DNA of 64,000 nt from Nitrospirota bacterium. GTDB lineage: Bacteria; Nitrospirota; UBA9217. Positions 11,249-52,273 of this stretch are shown here, piece after piece. The notes beneath the pieces were generated by a model. The model made no database searches, was not told the origin of the DNA, and saw nothing but the letters and a program-made list of their open reading frames with translations. The stretch is taken from NCBI GenBank assembly GCA_963755045.1, contig CAVWIL010000006.1, positions 74,664 to 138,663 on the forward strand, written 5' to 3'. A program made the position numbers and the translations under genes. Each line of letters starts with the position of its first letter. Position 1 is the stretch's first letter.

Positions 11249-11324
11249 TTCCCCTTTTTGTAATAGAAGTTCTTCTCCCTCTTGAGTGGGCTCGTTTCCC
11301 TTCCTCAAGAGAACTTAGTCTTAT

Positions 11325-11840
11325 TTTTTGCATATCCCCTTCTCGGCCTGAGCAAAATTTCTGACCCGTCTAAGGCCACGTCCGCTCGCCCGCGTAAACT
11401 CGGCCTGTGGCCTCAGACATGTACGCGTTCGCCCCTTCGGGGACGCTTCCTTAGGCCAAGACGGGTGCCCAAAAATTTCGCAATGGTCCGATCCGGGGAC
11501 ATGCGGGGTTGGGGGTAAGGCCAAGACTTTGTTGCTTTACCCCCATTCGAAAATTTAGGTGTGCGACCGAGTCCGAGGGTTAAGCATTTCGGACTGTCTG
11601 AGCCCGCAGGGCGAGTTTCCGAAATGTACTGAGGACGACCGAGCACGCCGTGAAGAATTTTCGTCGGGTGCCCTTCTTTGGTCACATTTCTTGGGCACGC
11701 AAGAAAGGTGACAGAAAAGAGCGAGGGTGGAGTGCTGCGTTGCTCGAAAAGGCTTGTTATCAGTAACGGCAATCATACCGGAGCCTGCCCTCGAATGAAT
11801 TCATCGGGGGCGGACTGTGAACCGGGGTGCAGAAAAAAAA
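11325..11840 (+). repeat. Mosaic foldback repeat, copy A (5'-truncated relative to copy B)
   Basis: Positions 11325-11515 align to 13376-13570 at about 88-90% identity by eye. Positions 11715-11840 align to 13725-13860. The central ~200 nt differs. The copy ends in ...CTGTGAACYGGGGTGCAGAAAAAAAA. Confidence 0.8.
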
Positions 11841-13294: not shown

Positions 13295-13860
13295 GTCCCA
13301 CGTGTGCATTGTTTTTTTGGGCAGCTCATCACTCGGCCATCCCCGATAAAGGCATTCGAGGACAGGCTCCGCATGCTCTTTTTTGCACATCCCCTTCGCG
13401 TCCTGAACGACATTTTTGACCCGTCTAAGGCCACGTCCGCTCGCCCGCGTAAACTCGGCCTACGGCCTCAGACAGTACGCGTTCGCCCTGTGGGACGCTT
13501 CCTTAGGCCAAGACGGGTGCCCAAAAATATCGTAAGGGCCGCTCCGGGGACGTGCGGGGTTGGGGTAAATCTTAATTCTGCCATTCCCGGCGCAGGGGAA
13601 CGGCAGAACTCTTTGCCTTTCAGAAGCCCCTGCATCCCATGAGCAGGTTCGCGCACAAGCATGGTAAGGTTGAAAAGACCGATGCTGCCACAATGCCAGG
13701 CAGACGCGGCCGAGCCCGTTCTCAAGGCGAGGGTGGAGTGCTGCGCTGCTCGAAAAAGCATGTTATCAGTACCGGCAATCATGCCGGAGCCTGCCCTCGA
13801 ATGAATTCATCGGGGGCGGAGCTGTGAACTGGGGTGCAGAAAAAAAATAGGATCGTGATA
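13295..13860 (+). repeat. Mosaic foldback repeat, copy B (most complete copy)
   Basis: This copy shares modules with copy A (left and right modules) and with copy C in inverse orientation (46-nt identical end GTCCCACGTGTGCATTGTTTTTTTGGGCAGCTCATCACTCGGCCA, plus middle and right modules). Internal inverted repeats lie at 13341-13375 and 13780-13815. Confidence 0.85.
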
Positions 13861-46019: not shown

Positions 46020-47135
46020 TCACGCCGCTTTCTTCACGCTCCGTACGACGAACCTCTTTTCTAGGACTGCAAGCTTTTCCATGATCCCCGTGTACTCAAG
46101 CTCGTTCATGGGCAGCATGGCCGCTCCGAAGAACCCCTGCCTTCTCATATCCATGGCCTTGTCCGCCACATGGTCCCTCACCCGGTCCCAAAAAGGATGG
46201 TCAAAGGCATCGATGGTTTCGGTGAGTTTGCCGTCGCGCGTGCAAAACGTCGCACAGCTCACGATCGGCGGACCATCGAAGTAACTGATCGTCGTGTTCA
46301 GCTTCACCGGCATTATCGGCATGTTGTGGGACCCGCGCATACAGCCCGCCACAAAATGACCGACCGCAAAAGGCTGCAGCACTTCACCGGTAGCGGGAAA
46401 ATCCATCTGGGTCCGGACCAGCATCACCGGGTCGTCCTTGCCCGTGTACTTTCCGGCGATGTTGTGCAGCCGGGATGTTGCCACGGAAACAGCCTGTGTT
46501 CCCGCAGCGCGTGACCAGATCGACTCCACCACATAGCGCTCCGGGTCGCGAAGCAGTGTTGCGATGTCATAGAGATCTTCGGGCGCGTTCAGCTCGATGA
46601 CCGAGTCGCCTTCGGTATGGTTCACGTCCATGATCACGAACTTGAAGCCCTTTGCCAGCTTGGGTGAAAGCATCAGCCCCGGTGTGTTCATGGCATCTGC
46701 GAACGCGAGATAGAGCGGGAAGTTGTATGCGCCGGGATCGGTCTTGTCAGCCGCGAAGAACATGAACGGTTCGCCTGGTCGCTCCTCGAACTCCATCTCA
46801 GTCACCGCCGGCCCCATGCCGTGAACATTCCCGGAAAAGGCGTCCTTCAGCAGGTCCTGACCGGCGCCGTAGAGACCTTGTGATTTCGCTACCACGGTCC
46901 CGGCTACGAAGGCGTCCCAGGCAAGCTTATGGACCTGCTCGTTCCCCTCGCCCAGTCTATGCGTCATGAGGATCGCCACGTCATCGCCGGTGAAGCTCAC
47001 ATAGTTATCGATCAGAAATCCCTTCCCTTTTTCCTGCACGTGTTTTTTCACCGTATCAAGAAGCTTTGCCGACGGCGCGATGTGACCTCCAACGGAACCG
47101 ATATCAGCTTTGATGACACTTACCGTGATCTTCAT
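46020..47135 (-). CDS. fbp: Fructose-1,6-bisphosphate aldolase/phosphatase (class V FBPase, bifunctional)
   Basis: This is an intact 371-aa ORF. MKITVSVIKADIGSVGGHIAPS...LLKDAFSGNVHGMGPAV...FFAADKTDPGAYNFPLY... are the characteristic motifs of the archaeal-type FBPA/P. Confidence 0.85.
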   Translation of the reverse strand: MKITVSVIKADIGSVGGHIAPSAKLLDTVKKHVQEKGKGFLIDNYVSFTGDDVAILMTHRLGEGNEQVHKLAWDAFVAGTVVAKSQGLYGAGQDLLKDAFSGNVHGMGPAVTEMEFEERPGEPFMFFAADKTDPGAYNFPLYLAFADAMNTPGLMLSPKLAKGFKFVIMDVNHTEGDSVIELNAPEDLYDIATLLRDPERYVVESIWSRAAGTQAVSVATSRLHNIAGKYTGKDDPVMLVRTQMDFPATGEVLQPFAVGHFVAGCMRGSHNMPIMPVKLNTTISYFDGPPIVSCATFCTRDGKLTETIDAFDHPFWDRVRDHVADKAMDMRRQGFFGAAMLPMNELEYTGIMEKLAVLEKRFVVRSVKKAA

Positions 47136-47603
47136 AGCAGACCTCCTTCCCAGATGGGTTATAGGGTAAAAATATTATACACAGATGCACAGAGAGAACA
47201 GAGACATTACGATTTTTCAAAATAGCATATGCGTTCTGTGTTCCTTCCCCCTCAGAATCCGTCATCCCCGGGTGTCCCGAGCCTGCCGCCTGTAGTGAGC
47301 GACTCGACTGAGCTCGCCGAAGTCTTGTCGAACCTGTCGAAGGATCGGGATAAGGTGTTGATCTCTCTGAAAAAAACTGATTCCCGCCGGCCTGGAGCGT
47401 GCCGGGGAGGCTTATCCGCCCTCGCACATGGCATGCCTTTGAAGAAAACTCCTCTCCGGATCAGTTTAACAGGACAGACAATACTCAGAATAATATTTTA
47501 TCACAAAGAAATGGAATTATCGGGCGGGACAAAGTTTTGGCATGAGGTGTCAACAAAATTGGGCGCAGGCTAAATAAAGTAGGGACAGTTTAAACAAAAT
47601 AAT

Positions 47604-49343
47604 TTACTCAATATCAAATGACCGCGTTGTTTCAGCAACCTTCCAGAGGACCTCGAAATTGCAGATGATGACGTCCGGTTCGCCTGCCTTGTCCTTCATG
47701 ATTTCACCCTGGGAGTCTATCGCGATAAGCAGGTCGTTGGGTTTTAAGAGCGACCCGTCATATCCGGCACCGCGCAGCCGCACCTTGAACTTTTCGAGCA
47801 ACAGACCGCATTGCGTGTCGTTCATGATTTTTTTTCGAACCGCCTTGACCAGGTCCACGGGTGTGAGCAACGTACCCTCGTGCTTCGACACCCATTCATC
47901 CGGGCCGTTGTAGTAGCCGCGGATCGTTATATAGTTGTGGTCCTCCGACAGGATTGGTTTGCCGTCGCTGTCCAGGATCGTTTTGTGGGACTCATACTTC
48001 CGGCGGTCGATAGACGGCTCCTCCTTTGCGCTGCCGGTCATGTAGATCGCCCGCACGTAAGCCGCATGGATGCCCTGCTCATTGAGCGCCTGGGAGATGG
48101 CGAACTCCTCAAAAGGGCTGTTGATTCCGTAGAGCCTGATCTTCTCGATCTCGTCGGCGCTGAACTTTTTGTCATCCGGGATCTCGCCGACACGGGACGT
48201 TTCCCAGACAAGATGGATGTTGTCCTTCGTGACCGTGTAATACACTTCGTTGGCTTCGGACAGGCTCAGCGACGGGGTCTTCCGCCATCGCTCCGGCAGA
48301 AAATAATCGAACAGACGCGAATTCCTGCCGACGACCCACATGCGGCCGCCGGTGCTTTCAGCACGGCCGAAGATATATGGTACACCGAAGATCTCCGTGC
48401 GGGTCAGATGCGACGGAAGCGGGATCGGATTGAACCGGTCCCGCATGTCGTCGAGATATGAGTGCCTCCTCGATGCCTTGACCTGATCCTCGTGCTCGGG
48501 TGTGCGGAACAGCAGCTCGTAATCGATGACCGAGTATTTCCCGACATTCAGCAGGTGATAGACCATGTCCACCTGCTGCGTTGCACCGGCGTCCCCGTTT
48601 CCGCCCGCCTGCACGATACGCTTGCAGTCGTCCTCATCGAGGATCACATGCTCCGGCTTCATGTCCGCCATGTGATACCCTTTTTTGCTCAGATCGACGA
48701 ACGCTTTTTTCTGCATGGTCTTCAGGTGATGAACAACATCAGGGAACTCGAGCTTGAAATGCGCAAATGTCTCAATCAGGTTTTTGCCCCGGATCCATTC
48801 ATAGACCAGCTTGTACTGTTTCAGGATGTCGATGTCAATGCCCGGATGACGCGCGTGGATGCGGTTGATCCTGGAGCGGGACCGTCCGCTCTGCCACAAC
48901 TGCATTCGCTGCGGCGGGACATAGATCGCGAGGGGCCGCTGCACCTTGATCCATTCGAGCCGCTGGCCGATCTGCTTGTCACCCATCTCCATGACCAGGG
49001 CAAACTCCTCCCAGGGGCTGTTGAACTCGGCGCTCACGAACTCTTCGAGCGTATGGGTGTTTATGGGGACGTCTTCTCCCACGCGGCAGTTCTTCACGAC
49101 CAGGTCCAGACTTGTGCCATTAACGCGCCGTGTGGGGACCCGGAACACGGAACTCGTCCCGAGCAGCCGGACACGGTGTTTCGTGAACCATCCTTCCTCG
49201 AACCAATTCTTGATTTCGAGATGCTCCTGGTGCGGCTCGGCAAACCGGGTGAGATAGAGATCTCCCCCGTCCTCGGTTTTCGTATGAAGGTATACGACGC
49301 CGAGCACGTTTACCAGGGCTTTCTGTTGGGCGGTCTTTTTCAT
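47604..49343 (-). CDS. Uncharacterised 579-aa protein with an internal duplication of a protein-kinase-like (Kdo/RIO/ePK-like) fold
   Basis: The ORF is intact. Half 1 has VVKNCRVGE, NSPWEEFALVMEMG, GYHMADMKPEHVIL and VIDYE. Half 2 has LVWETSRVGE, NSPFEEFAISQALNEQG, GYDGSLLKPNDLLI and ICNFE. No other domain is recognisable. Confidence 0.6.
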   Translation of the reverse strand: MKKTAQQKALVNVLGVVYLHTKTEDGGDLYLTRFAEPHQEHLEIKNWFEEGWFTKHRVRLLGTSSVFRVPTRRVNGTSLDLVVKNCRVGEDVPINTHTLEEFVSAEFNSPWEEFALVMEMGDKQIGQRLEWIKVQRPLAIYVPPQRMQLWQSGRSRSRINRIHARHPGIDIDILKQYKLVYEWIRGKNLIETFAHFKLEFPDVVHHLKTMQKKAFVDLSKKGYHMADMKPEHVILDEDDCKRIVQAGGNGDAGATQQVDMVYHLLNVGKYSVIDYELLFRTPEHEDQVKASRRHSYLDDMRDRFNPIPLPSHLTRTEIFGVPYIFGRAESTGGRMWVVGRNSRLFDYFLPERWRKTPSLSLSEANEVYYTVTKDNIHLVWETSRVGEIPDDKKFSADEIEKIRLYGINSPFEEFAISQALNEQGIHAAYVRAIYMTGSAKEEPSIDRRKYESHKTILDSDGKPILSEDHNYITIRGYYNGPDEWVSKHEGTLLTPVDLVKAVRKKIMNDTQCGLLLEKFKVRLRGAGYDGSLLKPNDLLIAIDSQGEIMKDKAGEPDVIICNFEVLWKVAETTRSFDIE

Positions 49344-49514: not shown

Positions 49515-49859
49515 TTACTCGTGCCTGACTATATCGACCGAGATCTCCACTGCCGGAATCGTTCCTCTGTTCTCAAGCCAGTGCGTGGTGTTCCTATCCT
49601 CGGGCCAGCCCACTCCCGGCCCATAGTCCGTAGCGACTCCATTTCGATGGTCAGTGATCGTTCCTTGCAGTATGTAGACGGTGCCTGGTCTGTCTTTATG
49701 GTCGTGAATCGGGCCGAAGACGCCTCCAGGCTCGATGGTCACCATACGCATTCGAAGTTGGCGCCCTGCCATACCCTCGATCTCAGGGCCAAGGTCAACC
49801 GTTGCAAGTAACTTCACCGTAACACCTTTCGTCTCAGGTGCCACCTGTTCGTTGCTCAT
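49515..49859 (-). CDS. Cupin-domain protein
   Basis: This is a 114-aa ORF. MVTIEPGGVFGPIHDHKDRPGTVYILQGTITDH...THWLENRG contains the cupin motifs G(X)5HxH and the second His motif. Confidence 0.7.
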   Translation of the reverse strand: MSNEQVAPETKGVTVKLLATVDLGPEIEGMAGRQLRMRMVTIEPGGVFGPIHDHKDRPGTVYILQGTITDHRNGVATDYGPGVGWPEDRNTTHWLENRGTIPAVEISVDIVRHE

Positions 49860-50128
49860 CGAGCTCTCCTCTCTGTACTTCCAGGGCCTAACCAGTTGTT
49901 ATTGAACGGAAACCGTCCGTAAAACCGAAAGTCCGATATTAGTGGGATGGATCCCCGAGACAATATCACAGTGAACACAACTCGTGGCAGCATTATGAAT
50001 ATATTCGTTGACTGCTTAATTGTCAAAGGGTTTTAATACTATTGCAAGGTAAGAAAATGCCCTCTTCCCGAGAAGGGAGAGGGCATGACAATATTTCCCG
50101 ACTGAGTGGTGAGGGAGAAATTACGGTT

Positions 50129-50285: not shown

Positions 50286-52073
50286 CTACCCAAGCCGCTT
50301 CCTGAACTCCTCAAGCTGCTTTTTGAGTCGCACGGGAAGACGGCTGCCGAACAGCGCGAAGTGCTGCTCGATTTCCGGGATCTCCATACGCAATGCCGCC
50401 AGGTCAACAGCCATGAGCGCCGTCATGGTCTCCGTCGGGATGTCTAGACCCGCGAGGTCCAGATCTCCGTCCTTCGGCATCAGGCCGATGGGCGTTTCCC
50501 TGGCGCCGACCTTGCCGTCCACGCGCTCGCACATCCACTTGAGCACCCGGCTGTTGTCGCTGAACCCGGGCCACAGGAACCTTCCTTCCGGGCTCTTCCG
50601 GAACCAGTTGACGTAGAATATCCTGGGCGCCTTGGCACCAAGTCGATCGCCCATGGCAAGCCAGTGCTGGAAATAGTCTCCCATGTGATAGGCCAAAAAG
50701 GGTTTCATGGCAAAGGGATCTCGTCGCAAATTGCCGACCGCTCCGATGTTCGCGGACGTGGTCTCGGACGCCGCGATTGCACCAAGGAACACGCCATGGT
50801 CCCAGGAAAACGCCTCGGTGACAAGAGGTACAACGCTGCTTCTGCGGCCGCCGAAAATAAAGATGTCAATGGGAACACCCTCGGGGTTCTCCCAATCAGG
50901 ACAGATGACCGGGCATTGCGATGCAGGCGCTGTAAATCGCGCATTCGGATGGGCGGCATCTTCCTTGCTCGTAGGCGGCCAGTCGCGGCCCTTCCAGTCA
51001 ATAAGATGCGACGGCAATTCATCGGTCATGCCCTCCCACCAGACATCGCCGTCATCGGTGAGCGCGCAGTTCGTGAAGATGATGTTCTTCTTCAGCGTGT
51101 CCATGGCCATGGGATTCGTGTCATAGGACGTTCCAGGCGCAACGCCGAAAAAGCCGCTCTCGGGGTTGATGGCATGAAGCCTGCCGTCGCCCCGCACCTT
51201 CATCCACGCGATGTCGTCGCCGATGCATTCGCACTTCCATCCTTTGATCGACGGCACCATCATGGAGAGGTTCGTCTTGCCGCACGCCGAGGGGAACGCA
51301 GCCGCAATGTGATAGCGCCTGCCTTCGGGACTGATCAACCGCAGGATCAGCATGTGCTCCGCCATCCAGCCTTCTTTTCTCGCCATGTTCGAGGCGATCC
51401 GGAGCGCGAGGCACTTCTTCCCGAGCAGGGCGTTGCCGCCGTACCCGGAACCGTAGGACCAGATCAGGTTCTCCTCGGGAAAATGGCTGATATATTTCTT
51501 CTCGATCGGCGCGCACGGCCACACGGAATCCTTCTGGCCGGGAGCAAGGGGCGCGCCAATCGAATGAAGACAGGGAATGAACTCCCCGTTTTCGCCAAGC
51601 ACCTCGAGCACCCTGGTGCCGACGCGGGTCATGATGTGCATATTGCAGACAACATACGGGCTGTCGGTCAGTTCGACCCCGATCTTCGAAATGGGAGAGC
51701 CGATGGGCCCCATGGAAAACGGGATGACGAACATCGTACGCCCCTTCATGCAGCCCCGGTAAAATCCGCGCATGGTCTTCTTGAGCTCGTCCGGGTGGAC
51801 CCAGTTGTTGGTGGGGCCGGCCTCTTCCGAAGAGTGTGTGCTGATGTAGGTGCGGTCCTCCACACGGGCCACATCGCTGGGATCGGTACGGAACAAATGG
51901 CTGTTGGGCCGTTTCTTGAGCGGGATCGCCATGCCGCGTTGCTGCATGAGCGACATCATCCGGTCATACTCATCCTTCGATCCGTCGCACCAGGTGATCG
52001 AATCAGGTTGACAGAGATCGGCAACCTCCTTCACCCAGGCGTTCAGTTTTTCGTGCCCTGCTCCATTCTTCAT
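50286..52073 (-). CDS. pckG: Phosphoenolpyruvate carboxykinase (GTP)
   Basis: The ORF is intact, with a GAGGAG RBS. It reads [32 protein letters not shown]...[13 protein letters not shown] (kinase-1a)...YFGVAPGTS... Confidence 0.9.
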
Positions 52074-52273
52074 AGTGAATCTCCTCGATATCATGATCGT
52101 TTTCCGGCCCGCTCTCCGGATAGCCGCGGGCCGTCTTCACCCGTTCAAGGTTGGTGTCATTGAACAGGTATTATGCATAATCAATGAAAAAAGTAAAGGG
52201 ACAACCGGATCTGAATAAAAAAAAGCCCCGCACGAGAACGGGGCCGAAGAAACCTGTTAAGAACATCCCCTGC

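Follow-up and report, generated by a model that had tools for sequence, protein, structure and literature searches.

In bacteria, the main known examples of post-translational control at the PEP-pyruvate-oxaloacetate node are AceK, which targets isocitrate dehydrogenase (IDH), and PSRP/PDRP, which target PEP synthase and PPDK. In the literature searched, no bacterial regulator dedicated to PEPCK or to malic enzyme was found to be described, nor was a PEPCK kinase, a malic-enzyme kinase or the protein family analysed here. The window studied is a stretch of 64,000 nucleotides of DNA from a Nitrospirota bacterium. It carries a gene for a 579-aa protein which was originally predicted to be a duplicated kinase-like fold with an active N-terminal copy (half 1), a degenerate C-terminal copy (half 2) and no place in a described family. 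The core of this original prediction is supported by the analysis presented below.

In the logic proposed here, the protein would share with AceK (E. coli b4016, 578 aa) the size of about 580 aa, the cytoplasmic location, the combination of a PKL catalytic domain with a non-catalytic domain, the action on a decarboxylating dehydrogenase and a gene that forms part of the operon serving a branch point of central metabolism. In addition, the gene of one lineage of the family lies directly downstream of the IDH gene. In contrast, the regulatory domain of AceK is not a duplicated kinase domain, and the present family is usually partnered with PEPCK and malic enzyme rather than with IDH. Homology to AceK was rejected: hhalign against E. 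coli AceK resulted in E values of 0.63 (half 1) and 0.27 (half 2), BLASTP in E >= 0.23, and no significant match to AceK was detected with Pfam. PSRP/PDRP (DUF299) correspond to the proposed logic as dedicated regulators of the PEP-pyruvate node encoded beside their targets. However, they have a P-loop-type bifunctional kinase/pyrophosphorylase fold, to which the window family shows no sequence or structural similarity.

Single-chain tandems have been described for plant kinase-pseudokinases, e.g. WTK1/Yr15 (PMC6170490). With these and with JH2-JH1 of JAK the window protein shares two homologous kinase folds in one chain, one catalytic and one degenerate and presumably regulatory. The JAK and plant tandems are eukaryotic, consist of full-length ePK domains and belong to an unrelated lineage, whereas the duplication described here is minimal, bacterial and family-specific. 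The pseudokinase of JAK precedes the kinase, whereas in the window protein the kinase comes first.

The Hanks-type Ser/Thr kinases (PF00069; PknB, PKA, PAK) have in common with the window family the bilobal PKL fold, the beta3 Lys, the alphaC Glu, the D-x-K-P-x-(N/H) loop (DMKPEH here versus DLKPEN), the D-F/Y-x metal segment and the register of hinge and loop. The window family differs from them by the missing GxGxxG, activation segment/APE and alphaF-alphaI, by the replacement of Asn with His, by an insertion of about 45 residues in the N-lobe, by the absence of a Pfam Pkinase match and by the doubling of the domain in one chain. The small core devoid of an activation loop is shared with ABC1/UbiB (PF03109), Kdo/WaaP (PF06293), WaaY (PF06176), RIO and Bud32. 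Unlike these minimal PKL families, the window family keeps the Lys of D-x-K, and its tandem architecture and PEPCK/malic-enzyme context are foreign to them. This Lys characterises the D-x-K-P-x-N loop of protein Ser/Thr kinases and not that of small-molecule PKL kinases; the loops of APH, choline kinase, Kdo, RIO and ABC1 are not known to contain it.

Gene and locus

The gene was identified in the ORF list as a complete ORF at 47604..49343 on the (-) strand, with an ATG start, a product of 579 aa and the stop codon at 47604-47606, as expected for the intact gene that had been predicted. Homologues align over the full length of the protein. The eight motifs quoted in the original prediction were all found, at residues 80, 108, 222 and 271 of half 1 and at residues 377, 408, 527 and 558 of half 2. 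The ATG is not preceded by a Shine-Dalgarno motif, as had been noticed before; a simple motif of this kind was detected in just 15 of 80 homologues and its absence is common in the clade. The neighbouring features are as follows.

46020..47135, (-) strand: class V fructose-1,6-bisphosphate aldolase/phosphatase, situated downstream in the same orientation (Pfam FBPase_3, E 1.9e-159)
49515..49859, (-) strand: Cupin_2 gene between PEPCK and the kinase-like gene (Pfam Cupin_2, E 1.8e-9)
49998..50026, (-) strand: TTGACA-17-TATATT ahead of the cupin gene, the best match to a sigma-70-like promoter (consensus scan, 11/12 matches, a pattern match only)
50286..52094, (-) strand: GTP-dependent PEP carboxykinase, conserved upstream partner (Pfam PEPCK_N and PEPCK_GTP, E 1e-165)

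The Pfam matches to FBPase_3 and Cupin_2 agree with the proposed position of the gene between fbp and a cupin gene. Nine of the most closely related loci also carry the class V aldolase/phosphatase gene downstream. The cupin gene, which separates PEPCK from the kinase-like gene in the window, was not detected by tblastn in any of the 83 related loci. Two other claims about the locus did not hold. Repeat DNA had been reported on the 3' side of the gene, but the repeat finder, TRF and blastn were all empty: no direct, inverted or tandem repeats were found in the gene flanks and the intergenic spacers gave only self matches with blastn against the window. An Rfam scan of the flanks revealed no RNA elements. 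The gene had also been considered monocistronic, which is doubtful since no terminator-like site was found between the kinase-like gene and the cupin gene or fbp, and the gene of the relatives lies close behind a PEPCK on the same strand. The kinase-like gene is probably not monocistronic, and the promoter-like site at 49998..50026 (-) is a possible start of a cupin-kinase transcript.

Duplication and predicted structure

The comparison of half 1 and half 2 as profiles of 40 diverse homologues with hhalign resulted in a probability of 99.9 %, an E value of 2.5e-36 and 246 aligned columns, whereas BLASTP of the two halves of the single protein gave only E ~1e-4. The register of the hhalign alignment was the one proposed originally, motif by motif. 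Judged by these profiles, both halves are homologous and the duplication is far beyond chance.

The AF2 model of the 579-aa protein, built from 103 diverse sequences, had a pLDDT of 92.1 and a pTM of 0.83. A shallow alignment (43 sequences, all >=75 % identical) resulted in an unusable model with a pLDDT of 50. Foldseek searches against the PDB gave 1,951 matches at E<=10 and 14 at E<=1e-3. The best 50 of the 1,951 matches were all protein kinases with probabilities of 0.93-1.0, and the structure search suggested with the original prediction as a check on the kinase-like fold was in its favour. The similarity to solved kinases is remote: E is ~1e-4, the TM-score is 0.2-0.34 when scaled to the length of the target, and the rmsd is 8-16 Å. 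These matches were obtained with the whole-chain model and refer to the chain as a whole. The model and the Foldseek matches indicate the bilobal kinase-like fold of the PKL superfamily, at low TM-scores of 0.2-0.34.

The family profile gave only matches to PAK5/7 at E ~1 among PDB sequences, in which the hinge and the HRD loop were aligned; this alignment was used for the register only. The hhalign comparison of the halves with PknB and PKA, performed with approximate sequences, resulted in E values of 0.01-0.05 at low probability and likewise supports only the register. In these weak alignments to PAK5/7, PknB and PKA the hinge and the D-x-K-P-x-(N/H) loop were found in the originally proposed register, and one register is shared by the weak alignments to PAK, PknB, PKA, ABC1 and Kdo.

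Both copies are devoid of the GxGxxG loop, the activation segment and the alphaF-alphaI subdomains and resemble minimal atypical kinases; the insertion of about 45 residues in the N-lobe is counted relative to the canonical ePK. In the model, D274-Y-E is followed by a single helix (residues 282-301) before half 2, and half 2 ends about 15 residues past CNFE. The domains are confidently packed against each other as a pseudo-dimer (pTM 0.83). An internal duplication of a minimal PKL domain is very likely the basis of the two-domain architecture.

Catalytic residues of the two halves

The residue conservation was counted over representatives of 50 %-identity clusters. The features of half 1, all on the (-) strand, are listed below.

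48429..49343, (-) strand: half 1, residues 1-305, minimal kinase-like domain with catalytic residues (hhalign of the halves, conservation, PAK/PknB/PKA register)
49074..49106, (-) strand: DLVVKNCRVGE, beta3-like strand with K84 and invariant R87 (conservation; strand at residues 80-85 in the model)
48981..49022, (-) strand: NSPWEEFALVMEMG, in which the alphaC-like helix starts and which carries E112 and E113 (conservation; helix at residues 110-121 in the model)
48639..48680, (-) strand: GYHMADMKPEHVIL, catalytic loop D227-x-K229-P-x-H232, compare DLKPEN of ePK (conservation; kinase loop alignments)
48507..48533, (-) strand: SVIDYELLF, DFG-equivalent metal-binding segment D274-Y-E276 (conservation)

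Position 84 is K in 80/95 and R in 13/95 representatives, and position 87 is R in 93/95. In the alphaC-like helix, P110 is kept in 92/95 and E113 in 87/91 representatives. D227, K229 and H232 of the catalytic loop are kept in 83/91, 85/94 and 85/92, and D274 and E276 of the metal-binding segment in 83/92 and 81/88 representatives, respectively. The conservation of K84, E113, D227, K229, H232 and D274 is 84-96 %, and the residues conserved best in the family are precisely those at the four motif positions. Two arginines, R87 and R154, are invariant. The loop of GYHMADMKPEHVIL was aligned to HRDIKSDS of PAK5/7, HRDVKPAN of PknB and YRDLKPEN of PKA; four of the six positions of DMKPEH (D, K, P and E) are equal to those of the Ser/Thr-kinase DLKPEN. 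The Mg-binding Asn is replaced by His (H232), and the WaaP motif HRDCYICH also has His at the Asn-equivalent position. The catalytic residues noticed earlier in half 1 are kept across the family according to these counts, and half 1 is apparently catalytically competent, judging from its residues.

The corresponding features of half 2 are the following.

47607..48428, (-) strand: half 2, residues 306-579, pseudokinase-like copy (hhalign of the halves; catalytic residues lost)
48183..48215, (-) strand: HLVWETSRVGE, beta3 equivalent of half 2, here with E381 (position counts)
48072..48122, (-) strand: NSPFEEFAISQALNEQG, alphaC-like helix of half 2, still conserved (position counts)
47724..47765, (-) strand: GYDGSLLKPNDLLI, catalytic-loop equivalent of half 2 with the Asp replaced, L532 (position counts)
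47643..47672, (-) strand: VIICNFEVLW, DFG-segment equivalent of half 2, C561-N562-F-E (position counts)

The half 2 equivalent of D227 is variable (N 21, L 12, R 10, D 9 and A 6 of 73), and the equivalent of the DFG Asp, D274, is Asn in 51/73 representatives. C561 is kept in 60/74 and N562 in 51/73. The helix is still conserved, with N408 in 80/91, P410 in 90/92 and E413 in 72/88 representatives. The replacement of Lys by Glu that had been ascribed to half 2 is present in the window protein (E381), but it is local to the clade and not a family trait: position 381 is K in 39/93, R in 32/93 and E in only 7/93 representatives, i.e. K or R in 71/93. The earlier view of half 2 as catalytically dead agrees with the loss of the catalytic Asp and the Asn in place of the metal-binding Asp, and because of these two changes half 2 is regarded as a pseudokinase-like module.

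The PKL catalytic residues (beta3 Lys, alphaC Glu, catalytic Asp and metal-binding Asp) are thus present as a set in half 1 and not in half 2. The comparison of the K/D/N/D positions across homologues, advised with the original prediction, resulted in their retention in half 1, with His at the Asn position, and in the loss of the D positions in half 2. Since half 1 retains the catalytic set across the family, whereas half 2 lacks the catalytic Asp and has Asn at the metal-binding position, the kinase-plus-pseudokinase reading holds: two homologous kinase-fold domains are found in one chain, one of them without catalytic residues.

Family size and relation to described families

The protein had been called an orphan, which is incorrect, as 2,690 homologues were detected at E<=1e-3. 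The closest 120 are 75-100 % identical, and the family is, as judged from this identity, under strong purifying selection. It forms 461 clusters at 50 % identity and is encoded in at least 542 GTDB species genomes of Nitrospirota, Planctomycetota, Verrucomicrobiota, Binatia and others. The homologues are all unnamed, and Pfam and NCBIfam gave no match to any of them. The 579-aa protein is cytoplasmic and a member of a large unnamed bacterial family.

No match at threshold was obtained for the 579-aa protein with Pfam, NCBIfam, PADLOC or PDB sequences (phmmer), in accordance with the view that no described family fits. Pkinase (PF00069) gave no match at E<=1 with this protein, and the list of 25 families that recurred in 103 members did not include it. 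Of the characters of a canonical ePK, neither the Pkinase gathering score nor the GxGxxG, APE and alphaF-alphaI elements were found. The recurrent sub-threshold Pfam matches of the 103 members were to atypical kinase families only, namely ABC1 (9), Kdo (3) and WaaY (2), and the 579-aa protein itself had no ABC1, Kdo or WaaY match in Pfam. The best E for ABC1 (PF03109) was 4.6e-4; the member P0270 reached 16.5 bits, and the 22.9-bit gathering cut-off of ABC1/UbiB was not attained. The best E values for Kdo (3 members) and WaaY (2 members) were 0.043 and 0.14, respectively, below the gathering score, and LPS genes, as expected around Kdo/WaaP/WaaY, do not recur near the gene in the loci examined. 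The protein belongs to a new family inside the known kinase-like superfamily.

Linkage to PEPCK, malic enzyme and IDH

The search for homologues and conserved neighbours that had been recommended revealed a broad family with PEPCK or malic enzyme as partners. In 54 of 65 Nitrospirota species-level loci, PEPCK was found on the same strand at most 1 kb upstream, with a median gap of about 72 nt. The linkage to PEPCK recurs in three lineages (L085, L138, L160) in different gene orders and with kinase-like proteins 35-44 % identical. In the long subfamily of about 660 aa, all four loci that were inspected have the malic-enzyme gene directly upstream, and in three of them the two genes overlap by 4 bp; it is also upstream in 9 of the 11 metagenome loci with enough upstream sequence. 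In one Limisphaerales lineage, the kinase-like gene is situated 86 nt downstream of the isocitrate dehydrogenase gene; this linkage was absent from one further Verrucomicrobiota relative locus examined.

The recurrent neighbours are confined to two large clades and many lineages have no metabolic neighbour. No universal neighbour was found in the remaining clades, where 92 different Pfam families were counted among 95 neighbouring ORFs. The function is indicated chiefly by the conserved partners (PEPCK or malic enzyme), which had been missed by the original prediction. Due to this neighbourhood, the family may control the corresponding metabolic branch point.

Discussion

A duplicated PKL protein whose half 1 controls the neighbouring decarboxylating enzyme is an explanation that has, in our estimation, slightly less than an even chance of being correct. 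Half 1 would act as an ATP-dependent phosphotransferase that phosphorylates or otherwise controls this enzyme, which would be PEPCK in the window, and half 2 would have either a regulatory function, in which it binds a nucleotide or a metabolite, or a docking function. The arrangement would follow the logic of AceK in the aceBAK operon, where a dedicated kinase is encoded beside the branch-point enzyme that it regulates. The specific role of a regulatory kinase, drawn from the analysis as a whole, is suggested more tentatively. Several observations speak against this explanation: the remote similarity to solved kinase structures, the missing peptide-binding parts, His in place of the Mg-binding Asn, the invariant R87 and R154, the want of a recurrent neighbour outside the two large clades, the IDH linkage that a second Verrucomicrobiota relative does not share and, in the window, the cupin gene that intervenes between PEPCK and the kinase-like gene. 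It is somewhat unlikely that the full proposal applies, i.e. an unrecognised class of metabolic-enzyme kinases whose targets are GTP-PEPCK and malic enzyme, joined by IDH in some lineages, with the pseudokinase half as a metabolite or nucleotide sensor, AceK-like but evolutionarily unrelated to AceK.

The activation segment and alphaF-alphaI, missing here, are the peptide-binding parts of ePK, and their absence would suit a small-molecule kinase or an ATPase as well as a protein kinase. If the protein were a small-molecule kinase in central carbon metabolism, half 1 would phosphorylate a hydroxyl of a metabolite (sugar, hydroxy acid or cofactor) in the co-expressed gluconeogenesis/C4-acid pathway with half 2 as a structural partner. 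The minimal PKL core without the activation segment or peptide-binding subdomains is consistent with such an enzyme, as are the recurrent weak Pfam matches solely to ABC1/UbiB, Kdo/WaaP and WaaY, the His at the Asn-equivalent position as in WaaP HRDCYICH, a conservation at the level of a metabolic enzyme and the one-strand cluster with PEPCK and FBP aldolase/phosphatase. The invariant R87 and R154 could, from their conservation, bind an anionic small-molecule substrate. However, the Lys of D-x-K-P-x-N is kept, which is a hallmark of protein Ser/Thr kinases, and we know of no gluconeogenic or C4 step that lacks a kinase. The partner switches between PEPCK, malic enzyme and IDH, which fits a regulator of enzymes better than a fixed pathway step, and is absent beside the gene in many lineages. 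This alternative is considered unlikely.

Less probable still is a regulator or scaffold that does not phosphorylate a substrate but binds nucleotide or hydrolyses ATP in the manner of the RIO, Bud32 and UbiB-type atypical kinases, and whose effect on PEPCK or malic enzyme would come from binding in stoichiometric amounts. The 4-bp overlaps with the malic-enzyme gene suggest translational coupling and equimolar production, typical of complex partners, and the confident inter-domain packing, the replacement of Asn with His and the absent Gly-rich loop point in the same direction. In contrast, the conservation of the catalytic base D227, of K229 and of D274 at about 90 % over clusters of <=50 % identity is hard to explain without gamma-phosphate chemistry, and half 2 of the same protein demonstrates how relaxed catalytic residues look.

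A diverged LPS-core kinase (Kdo/WaaP/WaaY) with an envelope role, for which the PEPCK linkage would be incidental, is very improbable. The sub-threshold matches to Kdo in 3/103 and WaaY in 2/103 members are far under the gathering scores and the window protein has none; LPS/envelope genes are not recurrent near the gene in the loci examined, the tandem architecture is not known in that family, and the linkage to PEPCK/malic enzyme repeats in independent lineages. A chance resemblance of motifs in an unrelated fold would accord with the lack of a significant kinase match in sequence-only searches and with the low TM-scores of Foldseek, but is hardly credible given that the best 50 structural matches are all kinases with a probability of about 1, that PAK, PknB, PKA, ABC1 and Kdo, though weakly aligned, are independently matched in one register, and that the four motifs coincide with the most conserved residues of the family.

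The family is widespread, strongly conserved and unannotated, and is linked to PEPCK or malic enzyme in several phyla. Whatever its function, it merits a domain model and a name. The kinase hypothesis is directly testable, as two recombinant proteins suffice. If control of the neighbouring decarboxylating enzyme by half 1 is confirmed, the tandem would be a bacterial example of kinase-pseudokinase regulation, and Nitrospirota, Planctomycetota, Verrucomicrobiota and their relatives would gain a post-translational control of the PEP-pyruvate-oxaloacetate node. This would add a new layer of regulation to the partitioning of carbon flux in lineages that are dominant in the environment and for the most part uncultured.

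The kinase-like gene and its surroundings

The kinase-like ORF starts with ATG, encodes 579 aa, and its GC content is continuous with that of its neighbours. Genes matching Pfam Cupin_2 and FBPase_3 adjoin it, which bears out the predicted position between a cupin gene and fbp:

46020-47135, class V fructose-1,6-bisphosphate aldolase/phosphatase (fbp; Pfam FBPase_3)
47604-49343, minus strand, kinase-like gene
49515-49859, cupin gene (Pfam Cupin_2)
50286-52094, same strand as the kinase-like gene and one gene further upstream than the cupin gene, GTP-dependent PEP carboxykinase (PEPCK)

Monocistronic transcription, which had been claimed, was not established, since no terminator-like site was detected between the kinase-like gene and either the cupin gene or fbp, and the cupin gene is preceded by the best promoter-like site of the region. 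The ATG is not preceded by a Shine-Dalgarno motif, as had been noted; this says little because only 15 of 80 homologues of the clade have a simple motif of this kind. A strong one (GGAAGGAGG) precedes fbp. The repeat DNA reported on the 3' side was not recovered: direct, inverted and tandem repeats are all absent from the flanks, the spacers gave only self-matches within the window, and the Rfam scan of the flanks gave no RNA element. At 468 bp, the stretch separating the kinase-like gene from fbp (47136-47603) is an unusually long spacer; no Rfam match, repeat or terminator-like site was found in it, only a weak promoter-like site at 47543-47516 (minus strand) and short, unsupported ORFs.

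Genes of central metabolism are plentiful in the window: besides PEPCK and FBP aldolase/phosphatase it encodes citrate synthase, aconitase, glutamate dehydrogenase, phosphofructokinase, aldehyde dehydrogenases and an adenosine-specific kinase. Neither another kinase-like gene nor a PP2C-type phosphatase was present among the top 25 of the 55 Pfam families matched in the window. Three collinear blocks of 47-96 nt at 11324-11814 recur about 2.0 kb apart at 13379-13820 with 91-95% identity (repeat families D1, D2 and D4), which suggests a recent duplication of an intergenic/regulatory segment of about 0.5 kb, or a small mobile element.

Distribution of the family

The protein, originally called an orphan, has 2,690 homologues at E ≤ 1e-3 in a large protein collection. 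The 120 closest share 75-100% identity with it and, with few exceptions, span the full length; they are named only 'hypothetical protein' where named and belong to Nitrospirota where an organism is given. A HMMER search covering all 1.84 billion cluster representatives yielded 461 clusters at 50% identity, of which 140 reached E ≤ 1e-30. Relatives are encoded in at least 542 GTDB species genomes, the best 80 being all Nitrospirota, mostly Thermodesulfovibrionia, and the remoter branches are labelled Phycisphaerae/Planctomycetota, Binatia, Elusimicrobiota, Eiseniibacteriota, Deltaproteobacteria and Verrucomicrobiota/Limisphaerales. The family is under strong purifying selection. None of the homologues carries a Pfam domain, and the window protein had no match in Pfam, NCBIfam, PADLOC or PDB sequences.

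Some members have N-terminal fusions, with a GNAT acetyltransferase domain (P0134) or a fragment of an O-methyltransferase domain (P0144). In P0192 the N-terminus contains helix-hairpin-helix/PolX-like motifs; this fusion may be a gene-call merger because a PolX/PHP gene is located just downstream of the family member in loci L002 and L003. Six proteins of about 275-330 aa (P0251, P0256, P0262, P0264, P0265, P0270) consist of half 1 only, with intact KFSRV, FNSPFEEF, LDNKPKHFI and IDFELL motifs, and stop shortly past the DFE segment. They may be relatives that exist as single domains, or their gene calls may be truncated.

Duplicated halves and the kinase-like fold

All eight motifs on which the duplication had been proposed were found, at residues 80, 108, 222 and 271 of half 1 (residues 1-305) and 377, 408, 527 and 558 of half 2 (306-579). 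The BLASTP comparison of the halves of this single protein was suggestive only (E ~1e-4). Profiles of residues 1-300 and 301-579, built from 40 homologues 29-85% identical to the window protein, aligned in the predicted register over 246 columns with a probability of 99.9% and E of 2.5e-36. The paired motifs of halves 1 and 2 are VVKxxRVG/VW(K/R)xSRVG, NSPFEEF/NSPFEEF, GYxVxDxKPxHxI/AGYxxLxLxxxHLLL and IDFELL/CNFEL.

The AlphaFold model reached a pLDDT of 92.1 and pTM of 0.83 with 103 diverse sequences; the pLDDT with a shallow alignment was 50. Foldseek against the PDB gave 1,951 matches at E ≤ 10, the best 50 of which are all protein kinases (probability 0.93-1.0), including MerTK, FIKK13, PKA, CDPK1, the MSK1 C-terminal domain, DAPK3, CaMKII, MELK and Akt. 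The predicted kinase-like fold was thereby upheld as a remote likeness, with E from 1.8e-4 and TM of 0.2-0.34 by target length, the matches not being attributed to either half. In a weak alignment of the family profile with PAK5/7, the hinge vvYeWvkG corresponds to VVMEFLEGG and the catalytic loop kGfrvaDmKpeHiIl to QGVIHRDIKSDSILL. The hinge-to-loop stretch of the half 1 profile aligns weakly with residues 91-149 of PknB and 115-177 of PKA. These independent weak alignments agree on one register. At E ≤ 1, the Pfam families matched recurrently among 103 members included three of atypical kinases: ABC1 in 9 members (best E 4.6e-4), Kdo in 3 and WaaY in 2, all below threshold.

The predicted structure of half 1 comprises, in order, N-lobe strands, an alphaC-like helix (110-121), hinge strands (178-188), an alphaE-like helix (200-220), the catalytic loop, the D274-Y-E segment and one helix (282-301), followed by half 2. 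This predicted secondary structure shows a minimal kinase core; the GxGxxG Gly-rich loop, activation segment, APE motif and alphaF-alphaI are absent from both the alignment and the predicted structure. No signal peptide, transmembrane segment or further domain was detected.

Conservation of putative catalytic residues (counts are from representatives of the 50%-identity clusters)
Position; half 1; half 2
beta3 Lys; K84: K 80/95, R 13/95; 381: K 39/93, R 32/93, E 7/93 (E in the window protein)
Arg +3 from beta3 Lys; R87: 93/95; R384: 58/92
alphaC Glu; E113: 87/91; E413: 72/88
Catalytic Asp; D227: 83/91; 532: N21, L12, R10, D9, A6 of 73 (L in the window protein)
Loop Lys; K229: 85/94; 534: K14, R12 of 73
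Asn equivalent; H232: 85/92; 537: H 46/75, D 17/75 (D in the window protein)
Metal-binding Asp; D274: 83/92; 562: N 51/73
Glu +2 from metal-binding Asp; E276: 81/88; E564: 43/71

The proposed contrast of an active-looking half 1 and a degenerate half 2 agrees with these counts, the catalytic residues being conserved in half 1 only. Across the family, half 2 has lost the loop Asp and carries Asn at the DFG position, whereas the Lys-to-Glu exchange holds for the window protein and its close relatives only. Half 2 also keeps C561 in 60 of 74 representatives and retains NSPFEEF; these counts therefore indicate a conserved pseudokinase-like module rather than decaying sequence. [quoted passage not shown]

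In a malic-enzyme-linked subfamily of about 660 aa (loci L084-L087, e.g. P0142), about 70-95 aa are inserted within the alphaE-like helix of half 2 (homologue alignment A2, columns ~830-897). The consensus, …GxLRRDxxGExxVxLCxDAL…, resembles the C-terminal hairpin and CNFE segment, …PDGxLxxDxxGxxxxTLCNFEL…, and may represent a further partial internal duplication.

Gene context of the relatives

Gene context is the main new finding. Of the 80 Nitrospirota loci from GTDB, 65 have 2 kb or more of sequence upstream of the gene, and in 54 of these a GTP-PEPCK gene of the same orientation is found no more than 1 kb upstream (median gap about 72 nt). Another gene separates the pair in few cases, among them the window. 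The cupin gene that does so here had no tblastn match in any of 83 related loci and appears to be a lineage-specific insertion, splitting a PEPCK-kinase pair that is otherwise tight. FBPase_3 is also downstream in the sub-clade of the window (9 loci), likewise in L001. The PEPCK linkage recurs with proteins only 35-44% identical to that of the window in varied arrangements: upstream (L160), downstream on the same strand (L138), or downstream and convergent (L085).

In the ~660-aa subfamily (Planctomycetota, Binatia, Eiseniibacteriota and others), a malic-enzyme gene lies directly upstream in all four long contigs examined, overlapping by 4 bp in three; one locus has malic-enzyme genes on both flanks. 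The same arrangement was found in 9 of 11 further metagenome loci with enough upstream sequence. The family is linked, in operon-like fashion, to enzymes of the PEP-pyruvate-oxaloacetate node that decarboxylate C4 acids.

In one Limisphaerales lineage, an NADP-IDH-like gene with the active-site motif GGIRSLNVALRQ precedes the family member by 86 nt (L170, 1009-2325 and 2411-4156; also L171). In E. coli IDH the Ser of this motif is the target of isocitrate dehydrogenase kinase/phosphatase (AceK), and the linkage would be an intriguing parallel to aceK; it is absent in a second Verrucomicrobiota relative (L174). P0130 (L168, 1843-4889) is divergent from an adjoining cluster with glutamate dehydrogenase and a 586-aa PPDK_N-domain protein, a PEP-utilising enzyme-like protein that adds a further enzyme type with ties to the PEP/pyruvate node. 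No recurrent neighbour was detected in the remaining clades, where 95 adjacent ORFs represented 92 Pfam families; the isolated contexts include argininosuccinate synthase and CoaBC.

Discussion

The protein would work like a PKL phosphotransferase. In aceBAK (AceK) and ppsA/PSRP, kinases dedicated to a metabolic enzyme have their genes next to those of their targets. Because of this precedent, a regulatory kinase of the neighbouring enzyme is tentatively proposed: half 1 would pass on the gamma-phosphate of ATP, most parsimoniously to the enzyme encoded next door, here PEPCK, and half 2 may be a ligand-sensing or docking module.

A small-molecule kinase, which appears unlikely, finds support in the minimal core, the weak affinities to Kdo, WaaY and ABC1, and the invariance of R87 and R154. 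The half 1 loop DMKPEH agrees with the Ser/Thr-kinase consensus DLKPEN at 4 of 6 positions, Lys included; small-molecule PKL kinases and RIO, Bud32, ABC1 and Kdo are not known to possess this loop Lys (D-x-K). Translational coupling favours a non-phosphorylating ATPase or scaffold binding PEPCK or malic enzyme, a rather improbable role beside the catalytic residues kept in half 1. Beside Kdo and WaaY matches below threshold, membership in the LPS-kinase family is very improbable, and beside a Foldseek list headed by fifty kinases a chance resemblance is even more so.

Membership in Pkinase, ABC1 and Kdo/WaaP was rejected by scores below Pfam gathering; AceK was rejected as well, the E. coli protein (NC_000913.3) having no similarity to either half. 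Eukaryotic kinase-pseudokinase tandems, such as JAKs and plant TKPs (PMC6170490), are parallel in architecture, with homology only at the superfamily level. Literature searches turned up no account of this family, nor of any kinase for PEPCK or malic enzyme in bacteria; as originally stated, no described family fits. A 2026 preprint, which shows that bacterial PKL families are still being added to the catalogue as a matter of routine, tempers the novelty of finding one more.

The structural reading of the original prediction is right and the finding is real: the protein represents a widespread family, new and so far undescribed, inside a known superfamily. The tandem architecture of this family is unusual, and its link to PEPCK and malic enzyme is specific and testable.
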